Assembly (NCBI GenBank): GCA_951406725.2
Contig: OX597833.1
Coordinates: 10,974,001 to 11,038,000, forward strand
Direction of reading: 5' to 3'
DNA: 64,000 nt
Origin: Octopus vulgaris
Lineage: Eukaryota
The stretch's first letter is position 1. The number at the start of each line of letters is the position of its first letter. Shown here piece by piece: positions 1,787 through 63,800 of the stretch. Position numbers and translations under genes: made by a program. The notes under the pieces are model-generated. The model saw only the letters and a program-made list of their open reading frames with translations. It searched no databases and was not told where the DNA came from.

Positions 1787-1830
<44 letters not shown>

Positions 1831-3744: not shown

Positions 3745-3830
<86 letters not shown>

Positions 3831-3836
3831 TATATA

Positions 3837-6131: not shown

Positions 6132-15420
<9,289 letters not shown>

Positions 15421-19466: not shown

Positions 19467-28711
<9,245 letters not shown>

Positions 28712-31301: not shown

Positions 31302-31355
<54 letters not shown>

Positions 31356-31747: not shown

Positions 31748-31816
31748 AACCACCTGATGAACGACTGTAACTCGAAAATTTAAAGAAATTAACAGCCATG
31801 AAACGACCGTAGTGTT
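31748..31816 (+). ncRNA. Hammerhead in the 5' pseudo-LTR of PLE copy B
   Basis: cac-CTGATGA-acgactgt...acagccat-GAAAC-gacc-GTA-gtg; the loop-3 palindrome is broken by one substitution. Confidence 0.75.
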
Positions 31817-31818
31817 AT

Positions 31819-32193
31819 ACTCTTTACTCTTTTCCTCTTTTACTTGTTTCAGTCACTTGACTGCGGCCATGCTGGAGCACCACCTTTTAGTACTTATTCT
31901 ATCGGTCTCTTTTTGCCGAACCGCTAAGTGACGGGGACCTAAACACACCAGCATCGGTTGTCAAGCAATGCTAGGGGGACAAACACAGACACACAAACAC
32001 ACACACATACACATATATATACATATATACGACAGGCTTCTTTCAGTTTCCGTCTACCAAATCCACTCACAAGGCATTGGTCGGCCCGGTGCTATAGCAG
32101 AAGACACTTGCCCAAGATGCCACGCAGTGGGACTGAACCCGCAACCGTGTGGTTGGTTAGCAAGCTATTTACCACACAGCCACTCCTGCGCCT
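31819..32193 (-). mobile_element. tRNA-derived SINE (cephalopod type) inserted into the PLE 5' pseudo-LTR
   Basis: Reverse strand starts aggcgcaggagtggctgtgtgg (A box) ... gggttcagtccc (B box), has an internal CA/TA repeat and a short tandem tail. Absent from the other two pseudo-LTR copies. Confidence 0.85.
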
Positions 32194-32464
32194 ATATTAA
32201 TTATATTTTTTTAAATAATTTTGTTATATATTTAAATAATATAAATTAAATAATCTTATGTATTGGCTTAAGTTTTTCATTGTATGATTTGCCTAATAGT
32301 GGTTTTATCTCTAATTTAATATTATATAATATTTTACTATAAAATTGTATTCAATCCTAAATCTGATTTTTCCCTGTAAGTTTGGATTTATTCCCTAATA
32401 TTTATTATTAATTAATATATTGATAAATTACGTATATTGAGTGTAACATCTCAACTTCGTAATT

Positions 32465-34917: not shown

Positions 34918-35440
34918 TGATTATTTCTTAGCCTTAATTAGCTCCCTATTTGTTGTTTTATGTAATAGTATTATAAATATACCAGGTGATTTGTAGTATT
35001 TATTATATTAGTTTATTTTAGTTATTTAGGTTCTGTTTTTAATTATAGTTAGATTATAGATGGTTGTTGATTTTATTACTAAATATTTTATTACTAAATA
35101 TATTTTTAATAAATATTTAATGGTTTATTGAATATAGAGTCTGGTAAGTTACAATTTTATTTATTTTATATATTTTGTTATATTTCTATTATAACTTCGT
35201 TAAATTATAATTTTGTTATATTAATCAATTTGTATGTAATCTCTTTATATTTGAAATAGTTTTATTTAGTTGTTTATTTAATCCATATTATTTAATATAG
35301 AAGTATAGATTAGTAGATTAATATTTTAGATTTAACTTAATATTTACCTCTATTTTGTATTGTAGTATGATTATAGACATTTATATATCTATTTATTTAT
35401 AATATATGTGGATGTGTGTGTATGTATATATGTGTATATG

Positions 35441-35483
<43 letters not shown>

Positions 35484-37107
35484 ACGATTTATTTATATGT
35501 ATGTGTGTGGGTGTGTATATATTGGTGTAAGTGTATATATTGAGTATTGTATGTATGTACATGTATGTATGAGTGTGCATATGTGTATGGGTGTAAGTGT
35601 GTGTATGTTATGTGTGTATATATGTATATGAATGTATGTGTGTATGTATGTGTATATGTGTATGTATATGTATATGTATGTATATATGTATATATATATG
35701 TATATATATATGTATATATATATGTATGTATATTTTCTTATATATTTATGTATACGTATGTATAGTTATACTACAAATTTTGATAAGTATTTATAGATTT
35801 GTTATGATCACTAATTTTGCTTATGATTATAAGGGCATGGGAAAGAATTTATAGTATGTAGAGGGGTTATTATATAAATTAATTTTTATGTATTTATTAA
35901 TCTTATAAGATTTTTAGAATATATTTAATAATTAGTGGTTTTTAATCATTTAAATCATTTAATTTATTTTGTATTAAGTTTCATTTATCATAGTTATTTT
36001 ATTAATAAATATTATAGTATAGAGAGATTTCATTCTTTATTTGTGAATTCATTCTTTTTACAATGATAAACATATAATTTTCCATTCATAATCTTTAATA
36101 AACGTAGGTTCCTCGCGCGTAATGAATTCTTCAACAATATATTCTTTTTTTTTGCTAATAACGTAATTCCATGAGTATTCTTATAAACGCTGTAAAAGAC
36201 GTTTTTTGATTCAAAATTTTAGTTCATTGATTAAACCTCGCCAAGTTAAGTATGTATTTATTTAAGATCTTCAAATTGTAAATTTTAATATTGTATAAGC
36301 CTTTGGAGTAATAATATTCTCCTTATGTAAATATCGCTGTTTACGTAATGATCTAATTATCGTAAGTTTCTATATTATTAGATATTAAATTTAAGTTTAT
36401 TCGTAAGATACTTTTTAGTGATAGATTTATTATTTGATAGCAAGCATACTAGGTGTATTAAGTTAGGCTTTGTATATACACGTTTTAATAGTATTAATTG
36501 TAGTTTTAAATTTATAATCAAATTAGATAAACTTTGATAAATTTAGATATGTTTCGACTATAGATTGGTCTAGGCCATGACTAATTTAATAGCATAACTT
36601 AGTTATTTCTTTAAATTTATATTAGATAATTATTCCCATTCATAATTATATTTATAGTACTTATAGTATTTATTCGATACTATATTGCTAAGAATTGATT
36701 ATTTCTAAAAGTATTTTACATAAGATTTCTGAAAGTCCGTTTAAGTTTGTTTATTTGGATTTTGAAATTAGCTATTTCATCTTTAAATATGAAAAATTAA
36801 ATTTATTAGGTTTTTATTATATACAATTATTTATAGAGGTTATTTTAGATCTTGATTATAATATTTATATATATATTTTCATTGATAATTTATATATATT
36901 AGTCATTTTAAATATTTATGTAATTAGATATAGACTAATATTGATATTAGATTATGGGTTTCCTACCTTATGAATTAAAATTAATATTAAACATTATAGT
37001 CGATTTGGATATAATCATATTTGATAATAGAGTTTATTATAAGTAAAATTATTATATTATATATATTATTTACATCTTAAAAATATTGATTATATTTTAG
37101 ATATTTA

Positions 37108-37176
37108 AACCACCTAATGAATGACTGTAACTCGAAAATTTAAAGAAATTAACAGCCATGAAACGATCGTAGTGTT
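37108..37176 (+). ncRNA. Hammerhead in the 3' pseudo-LTR of PLE copy B with core mutation CTAATGA (probably inactive)
   Basis: Otherwise identical to 3453-3521; G5A in the catalytic core. Confidence 0.7.
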
Positions 37177-37411
37177 ATATTAATAATATTTTTTTAATAA
37201 TTTTGTTATATATTTAAATAATATAAATTAAATAATCTTATGTATTGGCTTAGGGTTTTCATTGTATGACTTGCCTAATAGTGGTTTTATCTCTAATTTA
37301 ATATAATATAATATTTTACTACAAAATTGGATTCAATCCTAAATCTGATTTTACACTGTAAGTTTGGATTTATTCCCTAATATTTATTATTATTATATGT
37401 ATGTATATATA

Positions 37412-37650: not shown

Positions 37651-38523
37651 AATGCCAGGTCGAGCATCTCCTTGCTAGCGAAAGTCATGCCCCCTCAAAT
37701 GATTCTGTAAACTACGAAACAAATGGTAGTCTGAAGGAGGAAGATCGGGAGAATAAGGTGGATGAGGAATTTTTCCCAACCAACCTCTTCGATCTTCTGT
37801 GGTATGATGTTTGCATAAGAAGAAAAGACCCCTTTACCAAGCTACTGCTTACGACGTTTAACATTTCGATAGAAGATCCATTTTTCGTCACCAGTCACAA
37901 GTCTATCCAAAAAGGGTGAAATGAGTTCGCGAGAATGGAGAGAAGAGCAGATGTCAACTGGGCACTTGCGGTTGCTTTCGGACAATTCCTGAGGTACCCA
38001 TATTCCAACTTTTGGAACCTTTCCAAGTTGTTGAAGATGACAATGAACAATTGTCTGGCTTGAAATAAGCTTTATTGCCAATTCTTCAACTAAAAATGAA
38101 GGATTTTCTTCAGGTAAGGCCTCATGGGAATTATCACTAAACTCACCTGGACGTCGTGTTCGATCCTCATCTTCTAGGCTGAAATTTCCACTTCTGAAAT
38201 TTGCAAACCATCTTCTGCAAGTTCTTCCATTCAAGCATTCTTTCCCATAAACCGAGTGTATGTTTCGAGTCGCTTCGTTTGCAGAGTTTCCTTTTCTTTT
38301 GTACTTATAAAGAATTTGGTGCTTCAGATGTTCTTTGGATACTTCCACGTTAGAAAGGGTTTTAATCAAAGAAATTTTACTTTTATTATTCTGCAAAATA
38401 ATATTTATTTAGTAAATATACAAATGCATAAATATGTTTTTTAATTCCATTAGACATTCTAAAATATTATATTTCATTCGATTTAAAAGAGAAAAATCGG
38501 ACAGAACTTATGGGATGACCTGA
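37651..38523 (-). mobile_element. Mariner remnant (duplicate of 3837-4710)
   Basis: ORF 37842..38396 with WVPQEL and LVTGDEKW; same TIR end and same internal deletion. Confidence 0.9.
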
Positions 38524-40740: not shown

Positions 40741-40804
<64 letters not shown>

Positions 40805-40876
40805 AATACTTACACCGCCAAGTAGTAGTAATTCAGAAATTAGGTGAAAATTTAAAAACATTTACCCTAATTCATC

Positions 40877-40974
40877 TTTTAGACGATGCATCGTTTCTGT
40901 GTCATTAATGATTAAATTAGCTTAATTAAATTAAATTAAGCTAATCTACCATAGGTTACACTTCATCAGTAAAA
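40877..40974 (-). ncRNA. Type I hammerhead, R474
   Basis: Reverse complement of 42001-42098. Confidence 0.82.
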
Positions 40975-41349
40975 AACCTGGGAGAGACAAATATACACGA
41001 GGCGTCTGTATCGATGCCTACGGAATATCTGTCTTAAAATTTTCAAGACTGACGTATTCGCGCCAAACTTATCAGCAGTAAATATAAACTGCCGATTCAA
41101 TCTCAGAATTATTCAGAAAATTATCAATTAGTCAATTTAGGGTAGCAAAAAAATTCAATAGAAATTTGTCGCTACCAGCGGCCTAGTGGAAAGAGAAAAT
41201 AGTCAACGACTAAATATATAAATATAACAATTTAGGAGTGACCCTAACAGGTCATTCGTCCACCAGAAAGAGCAGCCATAACTCACACCGCCAAGTAGTA
41301 GTAATTCAGAAATTAGGTGAAAATTTAAAAACATTTACCCTAATTCATC

Positions 41350-41447
41350 TTTTAGACGATGCATCGTTTCTGCGTCATTAATGATTAAATTAGCTTAATT
41401 AAATTAAATTAAGCTAATCTACCATAGGTTACACTTCATCAGTAAAA
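41350..41447 (-). ncRNA. Type I hammerhead, R474
   Basis: Reverse complement of 42001-42098 with one stem II substitution. Confidence 0.8.
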
Positions 41448-42000
41448 AAACCTGGGAGAGACAAATATACACGAGGCGTCTGTATCGATGCCTACGGAAT
41501 ATCTGTCTTAAAATTTTCAAGACTGACGTATTCGCGCCAAACTTATCAGCAGTAAATATAAACTGCCGATTCAATCTCAGAATTATTCAGAAATTATCAA
41601 TTAGTCAATTTAGGGTAGCAAAAAAATTCAATAGAAATTTGTCGCTACCAGCGGCCTAGTGGAAAAGAGAAAATAGTCAACGACTAAATATATAAATATA
41701 ACAATTTAGGAGTGACTCTAACAGGTCATTCGTCCACCAGAAAGAGCAGCCATAACTCACACCGCCAAGTAGTAGTAATTCAGAAATTAGGTGAAAATTT
41801 TAAAACATTTACCCTAATTCATCTTTTTGCTACCCTAAATTGACTAATTGATAATTTTCTGAATAATTCTGAGATTGAATCGGCAGTTTATATTTACTGC
41901 TGATAAGTTTGGCGCGAATACGTCAGTCTTGAAAATTTTAAGACAGATATTCCGTAGGCATCGATACAGACGCCTCGTGTATATTTGTCTCTCCCAGGTT

Positions 42001-42098
42001 TTTTACTGATGAAGTGTAACCTATGGTAGATTAGCTTAATTTAATTTAATTAAGCTAATTTAATCATTAATGACACAGAAACGATGCATCGTCTAAAA
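42001..42098 (+). ncRNA. Type I hammerhead, R474
   Basis: tttta-CTGATGA-a-gtgt...(attagcttaatt/aattaagctaat hairpin)...acac-a-GAAAC-gatgcatc-GTC-taaaa. Stem I is 5 bp; stem III is the palindrome ACGATGCATCGT. Confidence 0.85.
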
Positions 42099-42474
42099 GA
42101 TGAATTAGGGTAAATGTTTTTAAATTTTCACCTAATTTCTGAATTACTACTACTTGGCGGTGTGAGTTATGGCTGCTCTTTCTGGTGGACGAATGACCTG
42201 TTAGGGTCACTCCTAAATTGTTATATTTATATATTTAGTCGTTGACTATTTTCTCTTTTCCACTAGGCCGCTGGTAGCGACAAATTTCTATTGAATTTTT
42301 TTGCTACCCTAAATTGACTAATTGATAATTTTCTGAATAATTCTGAGATTGAATCGGCAGTTTATATTTACTGCTGATAAGTTTGGCGCGAATACGTCAG
42401 TCTTGAAAATTTTAAGACAGATATTCCGTAGGCATCGATACAGACGCCTCGTGTATATTTGTCTCTCCCAGGTT

Positions 42475-42572
42475 TTTTACTGATGAAGTGTAACCTATGG
42501 TAGATTAGCTTAATTTAATTTAATTAAGCTAATTTAATCATTAATTACACAGAAACGATGCATCGTCTAAAA
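42475..42572 (+). ncRNA. Type I hammerhead, R474
   Basis: Same as 42001-42098; stem II base gtgtaa/ttacac is perfect. Confidence 0.85.
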
Positions 42573-43277
42573 GATGAATTAGGGTAAATGTTTTTAAATT
42601 TTCACCTAATTTCTGAATTACTACTACTTGGCGGTGTGAGTTATGGCTGCTCTTTCTGGTGGACGAATGACCTGTTAGGGTCACTCCTAAATTGTTATAT
42701 TTATATATTTAGTCGTTGACTATTTTCTCTTTTCCACTAGGCCGCTGGTAGCGACAAATTTCTATTGAATTTTTTTGCTACCCTAAATTGACTAATATAT
42801 ATATAAATATATATATGAACGCATTCTTTCAGCTTCCATTTAGAACAGAGGCTTCTTACCATGCAGCCAGGCCTGCACCTACAGAAATCGTTCCCATGCC
42901 GGCAATCGAACCCTGACCGACTGAACGATAGCTAGGAATTATATGTGTGTACATATAACATATACACACATAATTGTTATATATTTCAGCCAGTATAGGC
43001 CCAGGCTATGTATAACTTAATAGCACAAAGTGGTGAAGCAGTTTAGAATCTGATTTCCATCTCAGTCATAAGACTTTTTAATGTTGGAGACTTATCCGTG
43101 TGTCGGAGGCTGGTCGAAAAGTTTTGGGGGGAAAATTTGTCCTTAGAAATTTTAAATTTTATGGAATCTGTTTTCGCTTTAACGTATTCTGCTATAATAT
43201 TAAAGAGAGCTGGACCGGTTGAGGTAAAGTAGTCGCGTCATATACACATATACATACATATATACATATATGTATAG

Positions 43278-43310
<33 letters not shown>

Positions 43311-43350
43311 AATATATTATATATATGCATATATATATATATATATATAT

Positions 43351-43520
43351 AAAAAAGGAAAAATATTATTAATATAACACGACGATCGTTTCATGGCTGT
43401 TAATTTCTTTAAATTTTCGAGTTACAGTCATTCATTAGGTGGTTTAAATATCTAAAATATAATCAATATTTTTAAGATATAAATAATATATATAATATAA
43501 TAATTTTCCTTTTTTATATA
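43351..43520 (-). mobile_element. PLE pseudo-LTR fragment carrying the hammerhead (43376-43444, CTAATGA variant, GTC site) in (TA)n of copy C intron 1
   Basis: Reverse complement matches 3395-3535. Confidence 0.8.
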
Positions 43521-43550
43521 TCACCACTCGTGTTCGACATCTCCTTTTTT

Positions 43551-43584
<34 letters not shown>

Positions 43585-43614
43585 TACATATATATATGTA
43601 TATATATTTATATG

Positions 43615-43695
<81 letters not shown>

Positions 43696-43863
43696 ACATA
43701 TGTATACACGCACATATATAAAATTATGTCTTGTATATATATCTACTAACATATTAATGGTTGGACGATTTTTAATGTGTTTAGAGAGATCGATAGTTAG
43801 AACTATCGATCGTTTGATAAATAGATATATTGGTAGATAGGTGGACAGCCTGACTGAGTGTTT

Positions 43864-43925
<62 letters not shown>

Positions 43926-44418
43926 AATATCGATTGATTTGATAGTTTCATTCACGTTATATATTTTGCTTGGAAATTTTGGCTCGTGGTCATAAATGTC
44001 AGGAAGTTGTAGTTCGATTCCTTACAGGCCAGTGATGAACAGGTTCTGAATTCATGGACCTCGAAAGGATAAAGACAAGGCGCGACTACGCGGAATTTGA
44101 TCATTATCTTGAAATATTCAGTATTGTAGATGACAATTATAAAAGTCCCTAGAAAGGTTGTGCGATAGATAGTGTTGCAAAATAGAAAGCAATGAATTTG
44201 TCAATTACTATACGTAGCAAAGACATGGGATTACAAAAACTGAAAGGTAGTTTACAAGTCAATAATGAATTGTGTTCCATGTTGTAAGATAGAGATTGAC
44301 ATTTCTTGCTGAAACATTTTACATAGAAAGGCCTTATATATGTACGTCTGCCGCTTTCGTTTGTATACATAAATGAACATGTATGAATGCATCGCTTCAT
44401 GTGTATATTCGAATGTGC

Positions 44419-44454
<36 letters not shown>

Positions 44455-44628
44455 CCGCACACATATATGTATGTGTGTGCGTGTTTTTATTTCTGGATGA
44501 AATTTTTTCCTCTCTAGATTCAGCTCAGAGCTGCGTCCATGATGATGCACCATACATACATACATACACATATACATACATACATACACATATACATACA
44601 TACATACATACATACATACATACGTACA

Positions 44629-44662
<34 letters not shown>

Positions 44663-45039
44663 CATACATATAAAAGTACATACATACACCCATGCAGACA
44701 CACAGACACAATGACACACGCATACACACACAGAGATGCACAGAAATATAGATACATACACTATGGTCTGTTTCTTCGGATGACGTTTTCGTGCTTAATT
44801 GCCGAAGAATTCCTGGGATGATTTGTTTCCAGAGCTCCCTCCGTCAAATTAATGAACATGTCCAAAAATGTTCCATACGATCAATTGTCGATATATTTGC
44901 AGTGCAGTGCAAATAGTGTTGCTCAAGAACACAACGCCCTGCCTTCTGTTTGAATCGAACGCACAACCCATTATTCGTGAGTTTAAAACCTGAAGCACTA
45001 AACCACGTTTAAATATTTTAGCGTATATAAATATATGTA

Positions 45040-45426
45040 TCTCTCTATATATAAACGGCAGTTTGTCTGTGTGTGCTTCTGTGTGTCTGTTTGCTTGTAC
45101 CCTCACTCTGACCACGGCTTTCAACCGATTCTGATGAAACTTGACACACACATAGCCCAATGTCATAATTCAAAACTAACGCAGCGAAAATTTTGAAAAG
45201 TTCCCCCAGTTCTTAAAAAGATCGATAAATTCAACATGGGGTACACAATCAGAAATACAAACCACAGATGGTCATGGGGACGCAACTCGACCTTTTTAAC
45301 TATCAAAAAATAATTTACCATCTTTTTTTTCCCATTTTTTTGCTATTTTTTGGCTATAACTCTCAAAAAAAAATCCTTTATAGTTATTTCCTTACAAACC
45401 CGAGCAACGCCGGGCGATACTGCTAG
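45040..45426 (+). mobile_element. Non-autonomous Helitron-like element (duplicate of 9908-10291)
   Basis: Same TC...CTAG termini, hairpin and insertion site. Confidence 0.8.
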
Positions 45427-47976
45427 TCTATCACTATAAGGAAGACTTACATAAGCGAACAAACACGCATTCACATGCGGAAAGATACACACAAACGCAT
45501 ATATATCGGCTTGTTAGACCGCTGAATTCCGCGCAGGTCTTTTTCCGTGAAAATAAATATCTTTTCCATTGAAAGAAAAATATGTTTAAAAATATAATAC
45601 GTAGAAAGCGAAATGAATCGGGTCTGAGATATCTACCCGCCTTTTTGAAGATTTACAAACTGGAAGATTAGTTTTTCTAAATGCATTTGCAACATTCTCC
45701 GTGCGTGTTTTCGTTCGTTAGGCTTAATTAACTCTCATTGTGATGGGTTCGTTTTTGCCATATAAAAGCATGAAATAAAGGAGTACCCGATGCACAGAGG
45801 AGATAAGAAAGAGGTAAGCCACCAAGATGTAACACAATGATGAAAATTTGGTGGAATTAACAATGAAGTTGTCTGCCACATCTTCAAAAGAAGCTGTCCA
45901 AAAGTGCAATTATTGTATTGCTTAGCTTTAAATTCTAAACATTGATGAAAGTTCTGAAAATCTATTTCTATGATGTTATTTCAATTTTTTCACAGAACCG
46001 TTTCCTTTTCAAGAAATCTCTGGATGACAAAGCTGTTCACACGCCAAGTAAGAACTAATTTTATATCGTGCAAGATAAAAACGTAATAGAAATGTCCGTG
46101 GCCGAATTAAATATTATAAAATATTCTGTTTCAATCTCTTTTAGCTAAATTCATTTAAATGTGTCTCCTCACCTACTGGCTTCTAATTCTTTTCCGGTTC
46201 CATTCGTTTTTCATTACTTACCCTATCTGCTCAACGAAATACACAACTATAAGTTGGATGCGTAAATCAAATTGAAAATGTAACCCTCCTATGCTATGAT
46301 ATTAACTATGTTTATATGAGTTTATATGCAGGACCACGTCAATAAATGAAAGCAATTTTGTGTACACGTTAGACTATAATCTGGAAATAAGTATGTAAGA
46401 AATATTTTAATTTCAGATCTAATGTTAGTGTAAGCAATAAGAAATTGTAGGGTTTACCCTGTGTTGTAGTAAGAAAGAGAATCAATAAAACCATCCACAT
46501 ATTGTTGTTGCTCAGTAATTCTGCGAGTCTGGTGGTTGTAGAGAAACCAGGCACCTGTCTTTGAGTGACATTCCAGAGGGAAGCAATTGTTATTAAGATT
46601 ACCGGTTAGGTTGACATGCGTAACCAATTTGAGCCGATGGTATTACCTGCGCATCTCTTTTCTGGTCTATCCCCAGATCCCTCGCCGGCTGATCCAGATT
46701 GAAGAGTTTGTATTGTGATTCTTTTCTGTGAGATTGAAATCGCATGTCCTTAGTACAGGAGCTGTCATCTCTCAATGCAGAGAATCAGATGTTCGAACTG
46801 GAGACATTTGCTGATTTCTGATTAACCATCGCAGTCGAATAACGTTGCTCAAGAGATCCCTTGCAATTCGCATAATTTCAGTCGTAGTATTTCAGTCACG
46901 AAATTTTAACTTCTACACCAAATGTCAATGTTTTCTACGTTCAACACTAATGTAATGTTTTCTACCTTCGTGTTCCGTACTATTTCTGGTTTAATATTTT
47001 GCATCTTCTGTAAATTTGCAGGTTCAATACTTAAGAACATTCTAGAAATATTTTTAAAGACAAATGTTAAATTCTCTTTGCACCTAAAATTAAAAATAAA
47101 TTAATAGCAGCATATCTGTTACAAAAAAATACATTTCTACAGAATTTTTATTTTGAAATAATGTTATATTCTAATTACATCATTAACAAGTATTGTTGCA
47201 ATACGTGAAATTTATATTTTAATATGATTTTTATATGTTTAAGTTCTAATGCATAAAAACATATTAAAATATGAAATCGCAAAAATAAATTTCATAACTG
47301 TTTTAATATTTTTGGACGGGTTTTTTTCCAACGCATTTGTCTCACTGAACGATTTCATTTCATTTTAAATAATACATTTCTTCTCTCTAAAATGAATCAA
47401 TATTTTAAATTCTTATCAAAAACTTATTACCATTACCCTTTCGTTACTTAAAGCCACATAGCTGAATTTGTAGCACATATATTTTGACAAAGCTTTCACC
47501 ATAAGATTCATTTCATAGAACTCTTTAACCGGCAAAGCGGAGAAAGAAGCGGCTTGCAGCGGCTACAGAAAATCCATTGAAGCGCAAACTAGAATAAAGT
47601 GATCAATGAAATCAGATGATGCATTTCATAACACTAAATATCTTAGAATGACAAAAATATTCTCATTTATTTACAATGATTTCACGTATTTTGATCTAGT
47701 CTTTTATTTAATACGCCAAACTTGAATTAATTTATCTCAAAACATTTAGCTCAAGACTCGATCATCATTGCTAAAAACCGCATTGAATTCGGCTGAGAAG
47801 TGAATTAGTGATGAATCATGCAAATCTTTACCAGTAACTAAAAGTATACATTCACCCCCAGGCGTGGGGGACTATTTCTCGGAATCAGCTTTACGTTCAG
47901 AGGAGAAAGAATTTTCAAACCCTTTGTTTGTTTGTTTGTGTCTTTCTTTCATTCTCTCTTTTTTTCTTTCTTTGCT

Positions 47977-48051
<75 letters not shown>

Positions 48052-48349
48052 CTCTTTCTTTCTTTCTTTCTTTCTTTCTTTCATTCATTTTTTACTCATT
48101 AAATCCTCTGTCCTAGAAAACCTTCGTTCGTACGTTCGTTTGTTCGTTCCTTTCTACCTCCAACGCCTTTTCCTTCCTTCCGTCCTTCATCCCTCCTTTC
48201 ATTCCTTCCTGCTTTCCTTCCTTCCTCCTTTTCTTCCTTTCTATCTATCTCTCTTTTTGTCTTTCTTTCTTTTGTTCTACCTTTCTTTCTTTCTTTCCTT
48301 CTGTCTTTCTATTTGTCTTTTTTCTTACTTCCTACCACCACTCCTTCCT

Positions 48350-48393
<44 letters not shown>

Positions 48394-48866
48394 TCCTTCC
48401 TTATTTCATTCCTTCCTTTCTTCTTTCTTTCCTTCCTTTCTTCCTTCCTTCCTTTCTCCCTCCTTCCCACTCTTCCTTCCTTCCGTCCCGCTACCTCTTT
48501 CTTTCTTCCTTCCTTCCTTCCTTCCTTCCTTCCTTCCTTCCTCCCCTTCCCTCCCTCCTTCCTTCCTTCCTTCCTTCCTTCCTTCCTTCCTCCCTTCCTT
48601 CCTTCCTTCCTTCCTTCCTTCCTTCCTTCCTCCCTTCCTTTCTTCCTTCCTTCTAATCATTGTCTCCCCAATTCATTAATTCCCAGCCAAGAAATTCTCT
48701 CCCACATGGTTCACCAATTATTTTCTTTTAAACTACATTGTTTCCTTCGCAATTTCACAGGACCCTGTCCTGGATCCCTGTATACCCGGTGGGGTAGAAC
48801 AAAATGTACACGTAATTCAAGTCTGGTATACGATGGTTAGTATATTTTGTTTCTAATCTCTCACTC

Positions 48867-48908
<42 letters not shown>

Positions 48909-51882
48909 TCTCTCACTTTCCCTCCTTCTTTCTGATTATAGTATATAATCTTTTCCTATTATAGTATATCACGTTTTAAACGGCGATTATAGATTCTCCT
49001 GAGATTACACGAAACTACTTTCACCGTTGAATTTATTTGGTCATAGGCGAAATATAAATGCCGTCAAGAATGATCACACGAACAGGGTATCATCGAAATT
49101 ACCCCCTTGAACCCAACCACAGAATATAGTTACCTAAGGACTGTATGCATTCACTACGCACTATTCCACCACTTAATCACGCTAGTGCCTCATGGTAAGG
49201 CAATTCTGAGCTTTCCACTCAGAGGACACTATTTTCCACCTCTTCCCCATCAACTTTTCTTTCTATAAACGAGATTTTTTTTGCTTGAAATAGGATGGAA
49301 CAGATTTTACCTGTCTATAACCGAACCCTTAACAGTTTCCTTAAAGGTTTCCCAATTCAGCCTAAACTGAACCTTACAATCCTTTCTCCACTCACTTTCC
49401 TTAAGATTTAAAAGGACCCCAGTGATGCAGCAAATAAAGCCAACGTGACCATCACGTGTATCTTCACGTGACCTGTCCACGACTAGCCGAGAGTTTCAGC
49501 TACGCTGTGCAGGATGTTCTGTGAAATAACTTTTAACTACCCATCGACTGTCAATACTCTGCACCTCACCGTGATCTTCTATTTTATATTGGTTAAAAAT
49601 TCCTTGCATCGTTCTTCTATTTCATCTCCGTTAAAATTTGAACAAAATCGTCTTTTCCATTTTAGAGGAAATGCGTGACGTAACGGCCTTCCCTTCGCAC
49701 TCTTTTGACATCTGCACACAACCATCTACAGCCATGTATCTAGACATATTCATAAATATTACCTACACAAACACGTTGGCGTACACCTACAACATATATA
49801 CATATAAATCATAGACACGTACAGTTCTTAACTCATACACAAACATTCATTCAGCAACACGGCTTACACTCGCATCGATAGTAGTTTGTATACACAAAAC
49901 CTACACACGTAAACATAGTGAATGTTCAAACACATAGACACACGCACACGCGCACACACATAGACGCAAAGACACACACACACACATGCAGACACACCAC
50001 CGTATGTGTGTGTATATATAATCACCAATTTAAAATTGAAATTTCCTTTTCAAGGATTTCTTTTAATCCACGTTTTTCTTATTTCACTTTACTTAATATT
50101 TTCTTTATTTGATATATTCTTACCAATTCTAGGTGTGGTTGGTGGAACAGCGCATAACGAAACAGGCGGCGGAAGTAATCTCTTGTGTCTACCTAACGAC
50201 CCCATTTGGGCCAATTACATTGGCGTTGTTGCAGGTGGGGGTCACATATATGGCAGTGAATATCAAACATCAAATTCCTATTTGATAGAACACTTTTCTT
50301 TTGCTAACGCTGAATCACTTTTTGATCACAACGTTCCGTGTGCTGTCTGTTTGACACGACAACCTGCTGTTGTTATGATGTTACCAGCCAGGACACAGTG
50401 ATACCCTGGTTGGACAGCTGAATATTCAGGATATTTGATGACCGAACATCATACACATAAGGGTAGACATGAATATGTGTGTGTGGACTATGCACCAGAA
50501 GCTGATCCAGCAGGTTACAGAAACGAAAATGGAGCTTTATTATATTTTGTGAAGGGAGTTTGTGGTTCATTACCATGTCCACCGTATGTCTATGGTCGCG
50601 AATTAACCTGCGTTGTGTGCAGTAAATATTGAAGGGAATATAGTTGAATTTGCTTCTCTATGAAAACTTATGTTAACCAATTACAAGACATAATATAATA
50701 TCATAAAACAATATAGACATTTTAAATTCTGTTTGATAATATTTTATCGAAGTTATATAAATCGTTAAAATACTCTGCGCTACTAGTTAACAGGAAAATA
50801 TTATAATGGAGAGAAAATCGGCGCCAGAGAATGTGAGAATTATGCTTATAGAACAATGCAAAGCTGAGTGAATAATTCTAGATAAACAATGTATAAGGAT
50901 CAGTTCATAAAACTAAAATGTGGAAATAAAATTGTATTTCCTTTAACTGTATTTTGTGTTCTGTCTTAAATATCAATAAACCCCATTTGAAGTAATATCA
51001 TAGAAATATATGATGGTCCCATCATTTTTGAGAGGAATGTAAGTAGGAATCCTCTCACCACCTATTTGGTTTTCACCTGTACCTATACAACCTCGTGGTC
51101 CCCGCCACAAGATTAGTTGACATCCTCATAACCGGAACACGTAACCCTCACACCTTGCACCATTTCCTAAACACTGATGCACAACAATCAGGAATGGAAT
51201 CACCTGGGAGTATCGAATGCGAACAATTCTCTCACTGAAAAGCAGAAAAATGGTAAATTGGAGCAAAGATTTGCTTTACAACACTTACCACATACATAGA
51301 AAGCAGAGTAAAGACAGCAAAAGGACGTAGAAACATAATGAGGCTAAGCAAAGTTACTCTGTGTAAAATGTGTGATATGTTGAGACTGTTACAGGACATC
51401 CAATAAGAAACATCACTATGTGTTAGTGTAGAATATTCCTTAGATAAAAAAGAAGAAGATGGATATTTGGGAGACACAACGTCTTTCATGCAAGTAATTG
51501 AGTGCCATAATGTTGCCATTAAGAAAATGCATGTATTTAGACATTTATAATAGGAATCAACTTTAAAAGTATACATGTGTGTGTGCTTAACCCAATAAAC
51601 CTTTTGGAAAATTCGGACAGAGAATCGTAGCTACGTTTGAGTAGCACAGAGTGCGTTCTGTTTCAGTAAATATTTCTGCGATATGATATTTTAGATGAGC
51701 ACAACCGTCTATTTATTTGTTTAATACTATTATACACTCGACGTATTTACTCCCGTCATAACATGGACAAATGGCATGCATCTAATCAAATCTTAAGTTT
51801 CCCTGCTGGAATGTACGCACATGTTCAGACTCGCCCGGCTGCACACAATCTGACAGCCGTATTGCTTTTATAGCGAAGTAAC

Positions 51883-52559
51883 TGTTTCGATGTAACATTA
51901 AGATAGTTGTACTCTCAGAATCGAGGGACCTGATGACGGCCAGTTAAAAGATATTTGGATACACTTTATAACATGCCGGCTGGAAATATCATCATTGGGT
52001 GAGACAAGCTGACACTGAATCAGCTTCACTGACTGACAGGTGGCGGTCGTTTAGAGAATGCGCGGGCTAAAACTACGCTCCTTCACTAGTCAGTTAAGGT
52101 GAGACAGTTTCACGTGACAACTTGCTGGGGCTGCCTGCTGGAGCCTTGCGGCAGGTATTTAAAGGGAAGAATTTGACAAGTCAGTCAGTCACCGGCTGAC
52201 ACTCGCTGACGATACATCGAAGAGGCCGAGGAACACAAGAAAGGAGAAGAAAGAAGACATGCACCCAACACCAGAGCTCAAGACATCTACGAAATGGGGG
52301 CCACGTCACGTCAAAACAGTAGAGGAGTAGGGGCCGAAACCGGACGTGGTTCCTCCGGATGATGCCTTGAGCTAACTGGATAGTATAAAGGAGCTGTTGT
52401 GGTAGCAGACCACGAAACACGGTTGTAATTCCTACAGTGGTAGGCAAATGTACCAATTTAATGTTTATTTCCCTGATAAACGAAATTTTTGCAGCGTTTG
52501 GCAGGGCTTCCTCATAGTTAGTCGGAGTTAGTCGGGCACTGGGTTGGCAGGTTGAAACA
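51883..52559 (+). mobile_element. Possible solo LTR
   Basis: GC-richer non-coding block bounded by tgtttcga...ttgaaaca (TG..CA, imperfect inverted ends) with an internal TATTTAAA. No clear TSD, so weak. Confidence 0.3.
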
Positions 52560-53339
52560 ATTTATGGGAATGTTTATTCTTTATGCACCAACACTAGTCA
52601 GTGCAAGGGAGATGGGCTGCTCCTGCTCTAGCTGTATCAGGAGTGATGACTAATATCTTGTTCAACTGAAAGTATAAATAGAAGCATCCACGTTGAAGTC
52701 ATAAGAACATTCTTGATTATGTAATTGTCAACAGAAAAGACCCATCGGATGTAAAGCTGTCCGATTCATGCAGGGCGATGAATTTTGGACAGATGACAGG
52801 TTATTTTCTCCGTTGATTACACTGGTGATCACTGTCCCCCAAAGGCTGAGGTGTGAAGCACGAAGGCATCTTGGTGGGTTGATGCTTCTAAATGAAACTT
52901 TCATGCAGCACTTACACATTACAAAGTAGTAGCGAAATTAGACAATTCTACACAGAAATCAAGGATAAAGAAAGAAAATATAGAAAAGTACAAAACCAAG
53001 ACAAAATAAACATAAACAAACTACATTTATTAGCTACGATTCACATACAAACTCATTCTACTGCTCGACATTTTCAATTTATTGAACTAACAACCAGAAC
53101 TTTGAACAGAATCTTGACTGCTAACTGGCAGATTCTATACGTAGATAAGTGTTGAATGATTAGAAAAATGAATGTTTCATAGTTAAATTTGATATCTGCT
53201 GACTGCATGCACAGACAGAGAACGTAATTATTCAGTCATTGACCTAAATAGAAACAACTCCTGGCTTTTCTGCCACTCGACAGAGGAAATCTGAGAACAT
53301 TACTTTGGATCTGTCAGTAGATATGTTCATTGAACCGCG

Positions 53340-53470
53340 CCAGGCTTCAGTTTCCGGCTACCAAATTCTCTCACAAGGCGTTGGTCTGCCCCAGGCAATA
53401 GAAGAAGATACTTGGCCAAGGTGCAATGGAGAGGGACTGAACTCGGAATCAGATGGTTGAGAAGCAAGTT
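53340..53470 (-). mobile_element. Degenerate SINE head fragment (older relatives at ~7225-7340, 20485-20660, 42818-42930)
   Basis: Similar to 32040-32170 (ttcagtttcc..taccaaat..ctcacaagg..gaagatacttggccaagg..gggactgaac). Confidence 0.7.
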
Positions 53471-53473
53471 TCA

Positions 53474-53677
53474 TGTCAATTTAGTACGGCCGTGTCCAAC
53501 GACTACTTTAATTGATTAATGAAAATATTACACCATTGTAAAGAAGCCGTTTCTGCCAGATGAATTCATGAACATTAAAATCGTGAATTCTTCTGACGAA
53601 AACGATTTCTTTACAGTGATGTAATGTGTTCATTACTCCAATAAGGAGTCGTAAGAAACGGCCGTAATGGATTGACA
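53474..53677. repeat. ~200-bp imperfect palindrome (foldback, MITE-like)
   Basis: tgtcaat...tacggccgt...gaattcatga-loop-tcgtgaattc...acggccgta...attgaca; the arms are complementary over ~97 nt with scattered mismatches. Confidence 0.8.
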
Positions 53678-54039
53678 CCTGTACCTCTCCTGTTACTCAT
53701 TTACATTTTATTCACCTGTCCTGGAATTTGGTCTTCGTAAACATTATGGACCGCATTTATATATAATGTACATGTTTGAATAGCTCAAGAGCGGATTTCT
53801 TCCCTCAGCTGTGTTTAATTGTCTGCATACACGGCAAGAATATCATTCGGCTGGTTCTAAGGTACAAAGTTCGATATTTACTCAGTAGTGTTGTGTGTGT
53901 ATATTATACCTACCTATCGAGGTGTCTCAATTTAATGACCTAATTCAACAGAATTTTATTGATATTTCATAAACATATGTGTATACTACGTACGTGAATA
54001 CACAAACACACACATAATTATAGATCTTTCTCTATCTCC

Positions 54040-54101
<62 letters not shown>

Positions 54102-54110
54102 ATATATATG

Positions 54111-54147
<37 letters not shown>

Positions 54148-54177
54148 TTGTGTATAAATATATATATATATATATAT

Positions 54178-54480
54178 AGTAAAAAGGTAATAAAATAAAT
54201 TACTATTACCGGTGATCTAGCACGACCCTATACCAGAACCCTCTCTGTTTGTCGGGTATGTTTTGCGTCTGCGCAATGGTCTGAAAAGTTAGAGAATGCA
54301 AGTCGGCAGAACCGCACATGCTTCTAACGATATGTACTTCTAGGATAACAAAGGCTGCTTACTGAAGAGTCTAGCCTTGGCAGATAAATTATATTTTTCT
54401 GCTAAAAAAAAGACGAAACTGCAGTATAAGATGAGCCGAGTTTGTAAACGTTTTTGATTTTCATTTCATTGAATTTATCC

Positions 54481-54485
<5 letters not shown>
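54178..54485 (+). mobile_element. Partial retrozyme-like unit related to R445, in (TA)n
   Basis: Shares ttttgcgtctgcg, tgaaaagtta, agcctt..tgctaaaaa and gtaaacgtttttgattttca with 57200-57420; contains an HHR. Confidence 0.75.
54358..54430 (+). ncRNA. Type I hammerhead
   Basis: ctta-CTGAAGA-gtct...agac-GAAAC-tgca-GTA-taag; stems I and II are perfect and stem III is the palindrome ACTGCAGT. Confidence 0.85.
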
Positions 54486-54529
<44 letters not shown>

Positions 54530-55096
54530 CGGGAAGGTTTACGAAAATTAACAAAAGACCAAGGCAGGTGGAGTACAAACAAACAAGGTATTAGTATGGC
54601 GCTCAGGAATAGAAATATATATACATATTGACATTCATTGACGGATTCTTCGATTATTCCGATGATATCAAGCAAACAATTTGCCATTTTCAGGTGATAT
54701 TTAACAAATAACCACATTGGTATAGAGCGAACTTTAATTAACCCGCTTGATGACTGTTTCAGAAACACAAAGCGAATTTGCTAAAAGGAAAGTTGAATTG
54801 AAGAGGATATGAGTTAGATTTGGAAAGCAGAAATCAGGACCTACACAAGGTAGACAGATGACCATCCTGATTATTTAGGGGACCAGAGCGGACCGTAGTA
54901 AACATTCAACAATAAGAAATGAAAGGAGAAGAGAGAAAAGAAAGGAAATGAACGAAATCGTGGATATACAATTTACATTGGATAGGGTCCTTAGGTGTGT
55001 ATTTGTCCGAATATATGCAACTGCATATGTATACACACACACACACACATGTATATGTATAAACATATATATATATATACATGTATACATATATTC

Positions 55097-55133
<37 letters not shown>

Positions 55134-55140
55134 CACACAC

Positions 55141-55172
<32 letters not shown>

Positions 55173-55241
55173 ATACATATATATATATATATATACATAT
55201 ATATATACATATATATATATATATGTATACATATATGTATA

Positions 55242-55296
<55 letters not shown>

Positions 55297-55298
<2 letters not shown>

Positions 55299-55612
55299 CC
55301 TTAAAAAATCCTTAAAAATGTTTTAGCCCGAAGGCTGCGGCCATGCTGGGGCACCACCGCTGAATGAGCTACACTAATTTGTGAATCCACCTCTGATACG
55401 TGGCACTTGATCAACAAGGGAGGTCGATGCTGCTGCCCGCATCCGCGTCTCCTGTCGTGAGGTAGGTTCATCTGGGACTCCCAACAAGAAGAGATCCAGT
55501 TTAGTTTTAAAGAAACCCACATCCACACCATGTAAGTCTCTCAGGCATTTAGGGAGGATGTTAAAGAGCTGTGGTCCTCTGAAACCCAAGCTGTTGCAGT
55601 ATCTGGACCTGT
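55297..55612 (-). mobile_element. 3' end of a CR1/L2-group LINE
   Basis: ORF2 C-terminus GPQLFNILPKCLRDL...FKTKLDLFLLGVPDEP followed by a short UTR and tandem tail. Confidence 0.7.
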
Positions 55613-55674
55613 ATATTTATATATATATATATATATGCACATACATTTATATACATATACATATATACACGTAT

Positions 55675-55925
55675 TCGGAGACCCCCTTCGGTCACGACAC
55701 AGACCATGGGATTGCACCTAGAACTTTACCCTCCTAGACACGAGACCGGGCTAGGTTGTTTATGGAAGACCAGCAGTCGCCCATGCATACCAGCCTCCCC
55801 TCACCACGCCACCAGTGTTATCCAAGGGAAAGACAAAGGTCGATACAGCTTGGCACCAGTGACGTCGCAACTCATTTCTACAGCTGAGTGAACTGGAGCA
55901 ATGTGAAATAAAGAGCAATGTGAAA
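55675..55925 (-). mobile_element. SINE-like interspersed repeat fragment
   Basis: GC-richer non-coding block between TA repeats that resembles common octopus SINE bodies (ctacagctgagtgaactggagcaatgtgaaataaag); recognised from memory only. Confidence 0.5.
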
Positions 55926-55943
55926 TAAATATACACATAAAAT

Positions 55944-55976
<33 letters not shown>

Positions 55977-55982
55977 CATATA

Positions 55983-56070
<88 letters not shown>

Positions 56071-56071
56071 C

Positions 56072-56102
<31 letters not shown>

Positions 56103-56132
56103 CGTACAGATATATACGTACATATATATACG

Positions 56133-56164
<32 letters not shown>

Positions 56165-56192
56165 CATATATACATACATATATATATATAAG

Positions 56193-56267
<75 letters not shown>

Positions 56268-56270
<3 letters not shown>

Positions 56271-56612
56271 GCCCCGTGCCATCCGCCCAAAACAAAAATC
56301 GCACTCTCATCTCATAACAACAATACGGCATATTCACCTCAATTGGCCCCGCTCTCTTTAACATTACACCAAAACACATTAAAACAGAAACAGACCCTAT
56401 AGGGTTCAAGAAGTCTTTGGACAGATTCCTTCAAGAAATCCCGGATAAACCCCTACACCCGGATATGTCTCTGTAAACAATAACTCTCTACTTGAGTGGG
56501 CCATAGTGCCCAAATTCTGACTTGAAAGACTTCACCAGGTGGTGCTATTAAGTTAGACATGGCCTGGGCCAATAATGGCCGAAACCTATCAAAGTATCAA
56601 AGTCTCAAAGTT
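56268..56612 (+). mobile_element. 3' end of a second CR1/L2-group LINE
   Basis: Translates to [50 protein letters not shown]; ends in a (tcaaagta)n-like tail. Confidence 0.7.
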
Positions 56613-56614
56613 TA

Positions 56615-56676
<62 letters not shown>

Positions 56677-56774
56677 TAAGGGCTCCTAAATAAAGATGCC
56701 GAGTGCTGGGAACACAAAAAGGGGATGAATTTATCGAGAGTGAAAATCAAAAACGTTTACCGATAAATTTAACA

Positions 56775-56848
56775 ACTCGTACCGCGGTTTCTGCTTCTTT
56801 CTAGCAAAACACAGAATATGTTTGCTAAGGCTGTCTTCATCAGCGAGT
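56775..56848 (-). ncRNA. Type I hammerhead, R445 left arm
   Basis: Reverse strand actcg-CTGATGA...GAAAC-cgcg-GTA-cgagt. Confidence 0.78.
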
Positions 56849-57309
56849 CGCCTGAATTTAATCAAGGTCTGCAGCGATGTGGGGCTATATGTTAAACCCG
56901 ACTACTAGCAGATCTTAACTTTTCAAATCTCTGCGCAGACGCAAAATTTACACGGGCATGCCGGGAAGAATTTTACGAATAAATTCATCATGTAGTATGC
57001 AAATATAAACAAGGCATCTTTATTTAGGAGCCCTTAATTGTATAACCACATGAATAATATTTTTCTATATGAATAATATTTTTGTCTTATGATTAATTCG
57101 TCTTTTGTGCTGGGCACCTGGTAGTAAATAATATTACTACCCTTCTTGTTTATATTCGCATACTACATGATGAATTTATTCGTAAAATTCTTCCCGGCAT
57201 GCCCGTGTAAATTTTGCGTCTGCGTAGAGATTTGAAAAGTTAAGATCTGCTAGTAGTCGGGTTTAACATATAGCCCCACATCGCTGCAGACCTCGATTAA
57301 ATTCAGGCG

Positions 57310-57383
57310 ACTCGCTGATGAAGCCAGCCTTAGCAAACATATTCTGTGTTTTGCTAAAAAGAAGCAGAAACCGCGGTACGAGT
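57310..57383 (+). ncRNA. Type I hammerhead, R445 right arm
   Basis: actcg-CTGATGA-agcc...ttagcaaa/tttgctaa hairpin...gca-GAAAC-cgcg-GTA-cgagt. Stem I is 5 bp, stem III is the palindrome ACCGCGGT, and the base of stem II is weak. Confidence 0.8.
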
Positions 57384-57616
57384 TGTTAAATTTATCGGTA
57401 AACGTTTTTGATTTTCACTCTCGATAAATTCATCCCCTTTTTGTGTTCCCAGCACTCGGCATCTTTATTTAGGAGCCCTTAATTGTATAACCACATGAAT
57501 AATATTTTTCTATATGAATAATATTTTTGTCTTATGACTAATTCGTCTTTTGTGCTGGGCACCTGGTAGTAATAATATTACTACCCTTCTTGTTTATATA
57601 TATATATATATATATA

Positions 57617-60813: not shown

Positions 60814-63800
60814 AACCATTTCCATTACCAGAAATGTCTTGATGATAAAGATGTTCACACGCCAAGTAAGAACTAATTTTATATCGTGTAAGATAAAAAC
60901 GTAAAAGAAATGTCTGTGGCCGGATTAAATATTATAAAGTATACTGTTTCAATCTCTTTTACCTAACTTCATTGAAATGCGTCTACTCACCTACTGGCTT
61001 CAAATTTTTGTCGGATTCCATTCGTTTTTCACTTCTTACATAATCTGCACAACGAAATACACAACTTTAAGTTGCATGCCTAAATTAATTTGAAAATGTG
61101 ACCCTCTTATGCTATGATATTAACTATGTTTATATGAGTTTATATGCAGGACCACGTCAATAAATAAAATCAATTTTGTGTACATGTAAGACTATAATCC
61201 GGAAAAAGTATGTAAGAAATATTTTCATTTCAGATCAAATGTTAGTGTAAGCAATAAGAAATTGTAGGGTTTACCCTGTGTTGTAGAATGAAACAGAATC
61301 AATAAAACCATCCACATATTGTTGTTGCTCAGTAATTCTGCGAGTCTGGTGGTTGTAGAGAAATCATGCACAGTCTTTGAGTGCCATTCCAGAGGGAAGC
61401 AATTGTTATTAAGATTTTCTAGCCTTTTATTTAATTTTTCCTCTTGCCTTTTATTTGATGCTCCAACCTTGAATTAATTTATCTCAAAAAATTTAGCTCA
61501 AGACTCGATCATCATTGCTAAAAAACCGCATTGAATTCGGCTGAGAAGTGAATTAGTGATGAATCATGCAAGTCTTTACCAGTAACTAAAAGTATACATT
61601 CACCCCCAGGCGTGGGGGACTATTTCTCGGAATCAGCTTTACGTTCATAGGAAAAAGAATTTTCAAACCCTTTGTTTGTTTGTTTGTTTCTTTCTTAATT
61701 TCTTTCTCTCATTATTTCGTTCTTCCTTTCTTTCTTTTATTCATTCTTTCTTTCTTTTTTCTTTCTTCCTTCCTTTCTTTCTTACTTCCTTTCTTAACTC
61801 TTTAAATCCTCTATCAAGTTCCCATCTATCCTTCCTTCCATCTTTCCTTCCTTCCATCCTTCCTTCCTTCCTTCCATCCTTCCTTCCTTCCATCCTTCCT
61901 TCATTCCTTCCTTCCTTCCTCCCTTTCCCCTCCCTCCCTTCCTTCCTTCTTTCCTTCTTTCCTTCCTTCCTTCCTTCCTTCCTTCCTTCCTTCCTTCCTT
62001 CCTTCCTATCTTCTAATCATTGTCTCCCCAATTCATTAATTCCCAGCCAAGAAATTCTCTCCCACATGGTTCACCAATTATTTTCTTTTAAACTAAATTG
62101 TTACCTTCGCAATTTCGCAGGACCCGGTCCGGGAGCCTTGTATACCCGGTGGGGTAGAACAAAATGTCCACGTAATTCCAGTCTGGTATACGATGGTTAG
62201 TATATTCTGTTTCTTATCTCTCTCTCTATTTCTTTCTCACTCTCTCTCTTTCTCTTCCTCTCTCCCTCTCCCTCCTTCTTTCTGATCTACACAAAAGTTT
62301 TTCCTATTATAGTATATCACGTTTTAAACGGCGATTATAGATTCTCTTGAGATTACTCAAAACTACTCACTCCGTTGAATTTATTTGGTCATAGCCGAAG
62401 TATAAATGCCGTCAAGAATGATCACACGAACAGGATATCATCGAAATTACTCCCTTGAACCCAACCACAGAATATAGTTACCTAAGGACTGTATGCATTA
62501 ACTACGCACTATTCCACCACTTAATCACGCTAGTTCCTCATGGTAAGGCAATTCTGAACTTTCCACTCAGAAGACACTATTTTCCACCACTTCCCCATCA
62601 ACTTTTCTTTCTTTAAACGAGATTTGTTTTTGTTTGAAATACGATGGAACAGATTTTACCTGTCTATAACCGAACCCTAAACGGTTTCCTTAAAGGTTTC
62701 CCAATTCAGCCTAAACTGAACCTTACAATCCTTTCACCACTCACTTTCCTTAAAGACGTAAAATAACCCCAGTGATGCAGCAAATAAAGCCAACGGGACC
62801 ATAACGTGTATCTTCACGCGACCTGTTCACGACTAGCCGAGAGTTTTAGCTACGCTGTGCAGGATGTTCTGTTAAATAACTTTTAACTACCCATCGACTG
62901 TCAATACTCTGCACCTCACCGTGTTCTTCTATTTTGTATTGGTTAAAAATTCCTTGTATCGTTCTTCTATTTTATCTCCGTTAAAATTTGAACAAAATCG
63001 TCTTTTCCATTTTAGAGGAAATGCGTGACGTAACGGCCTTCCCTTCACACTCTTTTGACATCTGCACACAACCATCTACAGCCATGTATCTAGACATATT
63101 CATAAATATTACCTACACAAACACGTTGGCGTACACCTACAACATATATACATATAAATCATAGACACGTACAGTTTTTAACTCATACACAAACATTCAT
63201 TCAGCAACACAGCTTACACTCGCATCGATAGTAGTTTGTATACACATCCTACACACGTAAACATAGTGAATGTTCAAAACACACCCACACACATAGACAC
63301 ACACACACACATATAGACACACAACTTACACACACACATAAACTCAATCACACACACACACACCCGTATGTGTGTCTATTTATAATCGCCAATTTAAAAT
63401 TGAAAGTTCCTTTTCAAGGATTTCTTTTAATCCGCGTTTTTCTTATTTCACTTTACTTAACATTTTATTTATTTGATATGTTCTTACCAATTCTAGGTGT
63501 GGTTGGTGGATCACCTTTTAACGAAACAGGCGGCGGAAGTAATCTCTTATGTCTACCTAACGACCCCATTTGGGCAAATTACAATGGAGGTGTAAAACAT
63601 TGGGGTCACATATATGGCAGTGAATATGAAACATAAATTCCTATGCGAAAAAATACTTTTCTTCTGCTAACGCTGAATCAATTCATGATCACAACGTTCC
63701 GTGTGCTGTCTGTTTGACACGACAACCTGCTGTTGTTATGATGTTACCAGCCAGGACACAGTGTTACGCTGGTTGGACAGCTGATATTCGGGATATTTGA

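Follow-up and report, generated by a model that had tools for sequence, protein, structure and literature searches.

The 64,000-nucleotide (nt) stretch of Octopus vulgaris DNA analyzed here (contig OX597833.1, positions 10,974,001 to 11,038,000 of the forward strand; hereafter the window) contains three short elements, which we call R474, R445 and U54, each carrying a type I hammerhead ribozyme closely followed by a shared 20-letter motif that is the subject of this report. R474 and R445 consist of tandem units (474 and 445 base pairs (bp), respectively) placed head-to-head with a 5′-truncated inverted copy: R474 comprises an inverted array of ~2.2 units on the reverse strand (40804..41827) and a direct array of 2.05 units on the forward strand (41824..42796), and R445 comprises an inverted partial copy that retains its upstream block, hammerhead and motif (56672..57013, reverse strand) and a direct array of 1.3 units (57011..57601, forward strand). 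U54 is a single 308-bp monomer (54178..54485, forward strand) set in (TA)n. All of the units are A/T-rich (GC fraction 0.34–0.37) and non-coding, the longest ATG-initiated frame being 43 amino acids.

(TA)n flanks all three elements, and the window also holds a paralogous (TA)n site that lacks R474 and is filled instead, at 7060-7215, by another short insert, which contains TGAGCACT. The 3′ ends that join (TA)n, counted from the predicted hammerhead cut site, lie at +59 in U54, at +75–78 (inverted array) and +229 (direct array) in R474, and at +108 (inverted copy) and about +223 (direct array) in R445; R474 and R445 hence have alternative 3′ ends. Because U54 starts at a GGTAA..TTACC hairpin and ends at +59, it looks like a complete minimal monomer, judging from its sequence. 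The 5′ end of the inverted R474 array lies 1–4 nt past the cut site, the sole such case among five 5′ ends, which is a modest hint that a cleaved RNA was copied through to its terminus and, indirectly, of self-cleavage. By their sequence features, the three hosts are related non-coding retrozymes that have a Penelope-like architecture and are inserted in (TA)n.

The core boxes and helices I–III of the hammerhead are present in R474 (41998..42101, core 42006, with a long helix II and a palindromic helix III), R445 (57306..57387, core 57315) and U54 (54358..54430, core 54362), all on the forward strand, and cleavage is predicted after 42093, 57378 and 54426, respectively. Those of R474 and U54 were located by a pattern script, and that of R445 was read by eye and then folded. 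An A–A pair stands at the base of helix II in R474 (42013/42077) and R445 (57322/57366), where U54 has the usual G–C. The Rfam family RF00163 scores the U54 hammerhead at 24.2 bits, below the cut-off of 34, and an Rfam search of the window returned no matches at the gathering score.

The motif, GTAAAYGTTTTT(AAA/GA)TTTTCA, occurs eight times in the window against 0.11 expected, a count reached by none of 100 shuffles. Five copies belong to R474 (42110-42130, inside a 7-bp local stem formed by 42103-42109 and 42131-42137, and 42584 on the forward strand; 41812, 41338 and 40865 on the reverse), two to R445 (57398-57417, forward, inside a 9-bp stem formed by 57389-57397 and 57422-57430 with a 4-nt 3′ bulge; 56741-56760, reverse) and one to U54 (54444-54463, forward, where a local stem is at chance level). 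The motif starts at +17, +20 and +18 nt from the predicted cut in R474, R445 and U54, respectively, and it precedes the nearer insertion end, which falls at +59 to +108.

A preliminary description of this DNA had proposed a second conserved element beside the hammerhead in three families, and its sequences and coordinates for the loops and stems of the three elements are correct on re-reading. The element itself stands: at a fixed spacing from the cut, the motif forms a genuine island of conservation. When the first 58 nt after the cut are compared by local alignment score against 2000 shuffles, R474 and R445 score 29 (reached by no shuffle), R474 and U54 score 25 (reached by 12) and R445 and U54 score 44 (reached by none), and by such scores the motif is more conserved than the rest of the unit. 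It is the top local match across the entire R474 and R445 units (equaled in 18 of 500 shuffles), and it is identical at 20 of 20 positions between R445 and U54. The independence of three families did not hold up: R445 and U54 share 71% identity across a 129-nt alignment, whereas blastn finds no match between R474 and either of them, and the comparison therefore involves two lineages, not three. In a three-element alignment, MAFFT places the R474 loop wrongly.

The TTTKGCG..TGAAAAKTT block described upstream of the hammerhead is indeed found in all three elements, on the forward strand at 41908..41943 in R474 (a TTTGGCG hairpin arm and a strand, TGAAAATTT, complementary to the motif), 57212..57246 in R445 and 54261..54295 in U54. 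Its similarity is significant for R445 versus U54 only (0/2000 shuffles) and is not significant for R474 versus R445 (121/2000) or R474 versus U54 (457/2000). Between R445 and U54 the motif and block are both kept, whereas the scores of the 60 nt preceding the core and of the segment 121–180 nt before it are at shuffle level; the local scores of the remaining upstream windows are at or near that level as well.

A third shared feature, missed by the preliminary description, is a covarying GGTAR..YTACC hairpin in which both partners change together at the fifth and sixth base pairs. In R474 (GGTAG..CTACC, 42273..42308, forward strand) its copy at 42747-42782 ends 14 nt before the far 3′ end, in R445 (GGTAG..CTACC, 57565..57585, forward strand) it lies about 14–16 nt before the far 3′ end, and in U54 (GGTAA..TTACC, 54186-54210) it stands at the very start of the element. 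As a second signal for initiation, this hairpin is a strong candidate. The order of parts is common to all three elements: GGTAR..YTACC hairpin, TTTKGCG/TGAAAA block, hammerhead, motif.

Variation within R474 could be surveyed in contigs from four public sequence runs placed on one unit (1535, 928, 618 and 17 contigs, the depths of which are not copy numbers), which represent a diverse family found under three organism labels. Among the 19 listed changes reaching at least 5% of depth in the three non-RNA runs, none falls inside 42103-42137. In another R474 hairpin (42191..42212, forward strand) the common variants at 42196 and 42207 would jointly be compensatory, suggesting that RNA structure is under selection in the R474 family. 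A joint of 42333 to 41860 is present in these contigs, including those of DNA-type runs; tandem DNA would give the same joint.

The preliminary description had also noted complementarity between the motif loop and the upstream block. That complementarity is present, extending over 12–13 bp and not 6, and a long-range helix between the motif U-tract and the upstream TGAAAA strand accounts for it no less well than a kissing loop does. Such a helix can be drawn in 3/3 elements, as against 2/3 for the local stem. The best partner of the R474 U-tract within its own unit is the upstream block (−10.7 kcal/mol; 4/500 shuffles), and with extended flanks the helix is matched by 3.3% of 3000 shuffles in R474 and 2.9% in U54. 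Of the two strands, the one with the hammerhead gives the stronger core duplex in 3/3 elements (hammerhead/opposite strand: −6.6/−6.0, −5.3/−2.9 and −6.3/−2.9), and when the hammerhead is enforced, R445 forms the long-range helix with pair probabilities of 0.24–0.96 and leaves UAAACG unpaired. The folding tools used model neither pseudoknots nor base triples. A switch or pseudoknot between the local stem and the long-range helix is possible, and neither fold is proven.

We hypothesize, with about even confidence and by analogy, that the motif is a structured cis-acting RNA element forming part of a folded domain on which a borrowed Penelope-like reverse transcriptase would dock before copying begins. 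Recognition of this kind is supported by position and by likeness to PAc, a Poseidon element of the lizard Anolis and the source of the one Penelope protein studied in vitro; there the hammerhead cleaves at +26, reverse transcription begins at +111–118 and the minimal template spans +20 to +172 (PMC11167929; here and below, citations refer to those portions of a source that treat the point at hand). The determinants of PAc thus lie directly behind the cut site, in the same place as the motif, and it is this position that points to a reverse-transcriptase recognition element. Under this hypothesis, tandem transcripts would self-cleave; the U-tract is predicted to pair over 12–13 bp with the upstream TGAAAA strand, closing the hammerhead domain, while UAAAYG would stay exposed at the junction; and in R474 and R445 the local hairpin would provide an alternative fold at the freshly cut 5′ end. 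The protein would then load on the folded domain and nick (TA)n, and complementary DNA synthesis would begin either at a TA-like site past the motif or just past the GGTAR hairpin.

Several observations weigh against this hypothesis. The U-tract/TGAAAA helix is not significant in R445 (matched by 81% of shuffles) or in the core of U54 (75%), and in R445 it remains nonsignificant with extended flanks (25% of the 3000 shuffles). Its share of the predicted ensembles is minor (0.1–0.22 in R474; 0.06–0.16 in linear and 0.01–0.02 in circular U54), its invariant 6-bp TGAAAA/TTTTCA core yields zero covariation, and in a swap test the R474 block pairs with its own motif no better than with that of U54. 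The distance from the motif to the nearer insertion end is variable (22–70 nt), and the GGTAR hairpin lies closer to an insertion end and shows better covariation, so that initiation may in fact be signaled by this hairpin. Nor is the motif invariant, given that a minor R474 subfamily (~2% of depth) alters 42122 and 42130-42132 (the terminal A and the stem) and, in run X1, which we took by guess to be RNA, lengthens the U-run. With respect to a protein donor, the motif is absent from the 3′ end of Hydra-1_Obim, the units bear no real similarity to the decayed Penelope-like element of the window or to 44 animal-derived loci, and, by sequence comparison, no autonomous partner of these retrozymes was matched among the elements compared.

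A purely structural role, in which the U-tract/TGAAAA helix closes a rod that aids the hammerhead or holds the ends together for ligation into a circle and no protein reads the motif, is unlikely in our estimation. R445 folds as a long rod with this helix and an extended helix I, R445 and U54 lengthen the helix outward with different yet matching sequences, and the circles of animal retrozymes are described as highly self-paired and ligated by RtcB (PMC7229834). However, a plain helix should drift in a compensatory manner, whereas here the flanking stems have been fully replaced around a near-invariant core and a near-invariant unpaired GTAAAYG.

The fold originally proposed, in which the loop of a covarying local hairpin displays the motif for a loop–loop or pseudoknot contact with TGAAAA in the loop of an upstream hairpin, we consider doubtful. 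Its stem receives modest backing in two elements (p 0.02–0.07) and fails in the third. The R474 and R445 stems are perfect (7 and 9 bp) and differ in sequence, and their energies are matched by 5.0% of random unit-segment pairs and 7.0% of shuffles in R474 and by 3.7% and 2.0%, respectively, in R445. A stem of at least 7 bp accompanies only 1 of 118 chance matches to the motif elsewhere, TGAAAA is able to occupy a small hairpin loop, and in the 3′ cleavage product of R474 the local stem prevails (pair probability 0.83–1.0), with 0.5–0.6 reached in R445. Against this, the stem is absent in U54, where its pair probability is 0.01 and its energy, matched by 70% of random unit-segment pairs and 68% of shuffles, is no better than chance; it has zero probability in the fold of full-length R445 and is weaker in the minor R474 subfamily.

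Two further readings appear improbable. U-rich triple-helix elements such as ENE and the telomerase RNA pseudoknot combine two U-tracts with a distant A-tract, and the motif, with its two U-tracts and a distant A-tract partner, resembles them in outline. Together with the GAAAA strand upstream, these U-tracts might form a pseudoknot or U–A–U triple helix that is switched on after cleavage and serves as a docking site for the reverse transcriptase, a template-recognition module resembling that of telomerase RNA; to this model we assign a slim chance. Unlike these elements, the motif has U-tracts only 2–3 nt apart and an A-tract of 4 nt, and it has no Rfam match. Penelope reverse transcriptases are sister to telomerase reverse transcriptase (PMC8557442). 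It is likewise improbable that the motif is a functionless remnant of common descent or a product of low-complexity A/T convergence. Just two independent lineages are available, the whole-unit test is modest (the 18/500 given above), the motif is A/T-rich and loose patterns match 118 unrelated contigs; yet its position is fixed, its complete identity between R445 and U54 is set amid 71%, and it survives between R474 and R445 where blastn is empty.

A DNA-level or processing signal is very improbable: T5 resembles a polymerase III terminator, GTAAAY resembles a splice donor and the inverted TGAAAA repeat could suit a dimeric protein, but the two arms differ mostly in ways that permit G–U pairing on the hammerhead strand alone, TTTTCA is not followed by an AG acceptor, and the inverted R474 array starts at the cut site and crosses the motif, which implies that the template was read through it. 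The terminal repeats of Penelope elements do contain promoters and introns (PMC8557442).

Beyond the window, Rfam returned nothing credible for the motif at E values up to 10. Pattern scans of viral and metagenome collections, which contain little animal DNA and therefore bear little on the range of the motif, gave 11 and 107 matches, and we rejected all 118 as chance, since 12 have CTGANGA within 160 nt upstream and none of these has a closing stem longer than 4 bp. A combined block-plus-motif pattern gave 32 viral matches, none with a hammerhead core or full loop, the exact motif was found in 0/5 assemblies containing animal Penelope DNA and in no plasmid, and a Penelope protein search of viral contigs yielded nothing. 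Motif words were absent from a consensus file of Naiad, Chlamys and Hydra elements, in which wrapped lines could mask matches. Motif strings in full-text literature gave unrelated matches only, and the portions of the literature on the topic considered here (including PMC4209133, PMC3846280, PMC6765202 and PMC13725137) contain no description of it; Repbase and Lunse et al., which fall outside this scope, may bear on novelty. The hosts belong to a known class, and the motif set appears undescribed.

Other features of the window include a tandemly duplicated gene family (14728-15420, 28172-28711, 49964-50630 and 63235-63636) that has no Pfam match and resembles mollusc and chordate proteins, with an in-frame stop near 50399 in the copy at 50.1–50.6 kb, and fragments of a Mariner-type transposase helix-turn-helix at 4032-4595 and 37845-38408. 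A decayed Penelope-like element, probably of the Hydra clade (as judged from its protein by eye), occupies 31351-37395 and is partly duplicated at 1-3836. It retains reverse transcriptase remains (32670-34198), a GIY-YIG domain (841-1257), a long A/T-rich untranslated region and, near 31755 and 37093, a degenerate core resembling that of a hammerhead; the motif is absent from it.

The question on which this locus bears is how Penelope-like proteins select RNA and whether they mobilize animal retrozymes. Non-coding parasites retain only what a borrowed protein needs, and conservation islands common to diverged families therefore point at cis-acting signals. A partnership between Penelope elements and retrozymes is inferred from phylogeny in 10.64898/2026.07.22.740005, and PMC11167929 maps a minimal Penelope template, in its relevant portions without naming a motif; at the present locus three short candidates (motif, upstream block and end hairpin) could be mutated singly within one 308-nt monomer, and the locus also supplies a sequence tag for tracing an autonomous partner. 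Should the role of the motif prove purely structural, it would add only modestly to what is known of retrozyme anatomy.

Among known systems, the animal non-LTR (long terminal repeat) retrozymes (PMC7229834; 10.64898/2026.07.22.740005) resemble R474, R445 and U54 in being short, low-GC, non-coding units, tandem in R474 and R445, that each carry a type I hammerhead, and they have been proposed to be non-autonomous Penelope derivatives arising from Penelope terminal repeats (10.64898/2026.07.22.740005). R474 lies slightly above their reported range of 150–450 bp, R474 and R445 depart from them in the A–A pair at the base of helix II, and the pertinent parts of these two accounts do not describe a motif beside the hammerhead. 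Partial tandems with an inverted, 5′-truncated copy, as in R474 and R445, are a feature of Penelope-like elements (PMC8557442). As proposed here, reverse transcription of PAc starts inside the RNA downstream of the cut, and the needed RNA begins near the cut site, the region occupied by the motif; PAc also has two alternative 3′ ends (PMC11167929). PAc differs in being autonomous, in that the region is coding and the start site is an AC-rich stem loop, and in that its two ends differ by a 30–40 bp tail, as opposed to about 115–150 nt here (PMC11167929).

Hydra-clade Penelope elements (PMC8557442) share with these hosts the (TA)n targets, the palindromic helix III and a hairpin near the end; their 3′ end lies 30–60 nt past the cut, and several Hydra magnipapillata families have an A-rich and then a U-rich run after helix I. 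The preliminary description had suggested looking for the motif in Penelope-like untranslated regions; it occurs in 0/34 Hydra-clade post-cut segments, the best score (22, against 25 for R474 versus R445) falling in the shuffle range. The segment most like the motif is at 2546-2580 of locus L121, at a nonsignificant level; L121 also contains a GGTAG hairpin which, at ~550 nt from the hammerhead of that locus, was not considered further. In 16 Hydra-clade loci (animal DNA in microbial assemblies), all of which lack the motif, the element ends 30–60 nt past the hammerhead and bears its own conserved hairpin there, GCTC..GAGCRCT, in place of the GGTAR..YTACC of R474, R445 and U54; allowing one mismatch, the window contains no match to it. 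The pattern GCTC-N-(T/A)GAGC(A/G)CT has 13 matches in the 16 loci, 12 of them with a hammerhead core within 160 nt, as compared with one match for the reversed pattern. Loci with this hairpin include L119 (836), L122 (1779), L124, L125 (5858), L126, L127 (2002), L128 and L129 (1334). It stands just after the TA-like primary end and is also visible in the Hydra consensus sequences of PMC8557442, whose relevant sections do not discuss it. The GCTC hairpin may be the tail signal of the Hydra clade, and since these loci bear a post-cut hairpin of their own, lineage-specific RNA signals behind the hammerhead seem to be usual.

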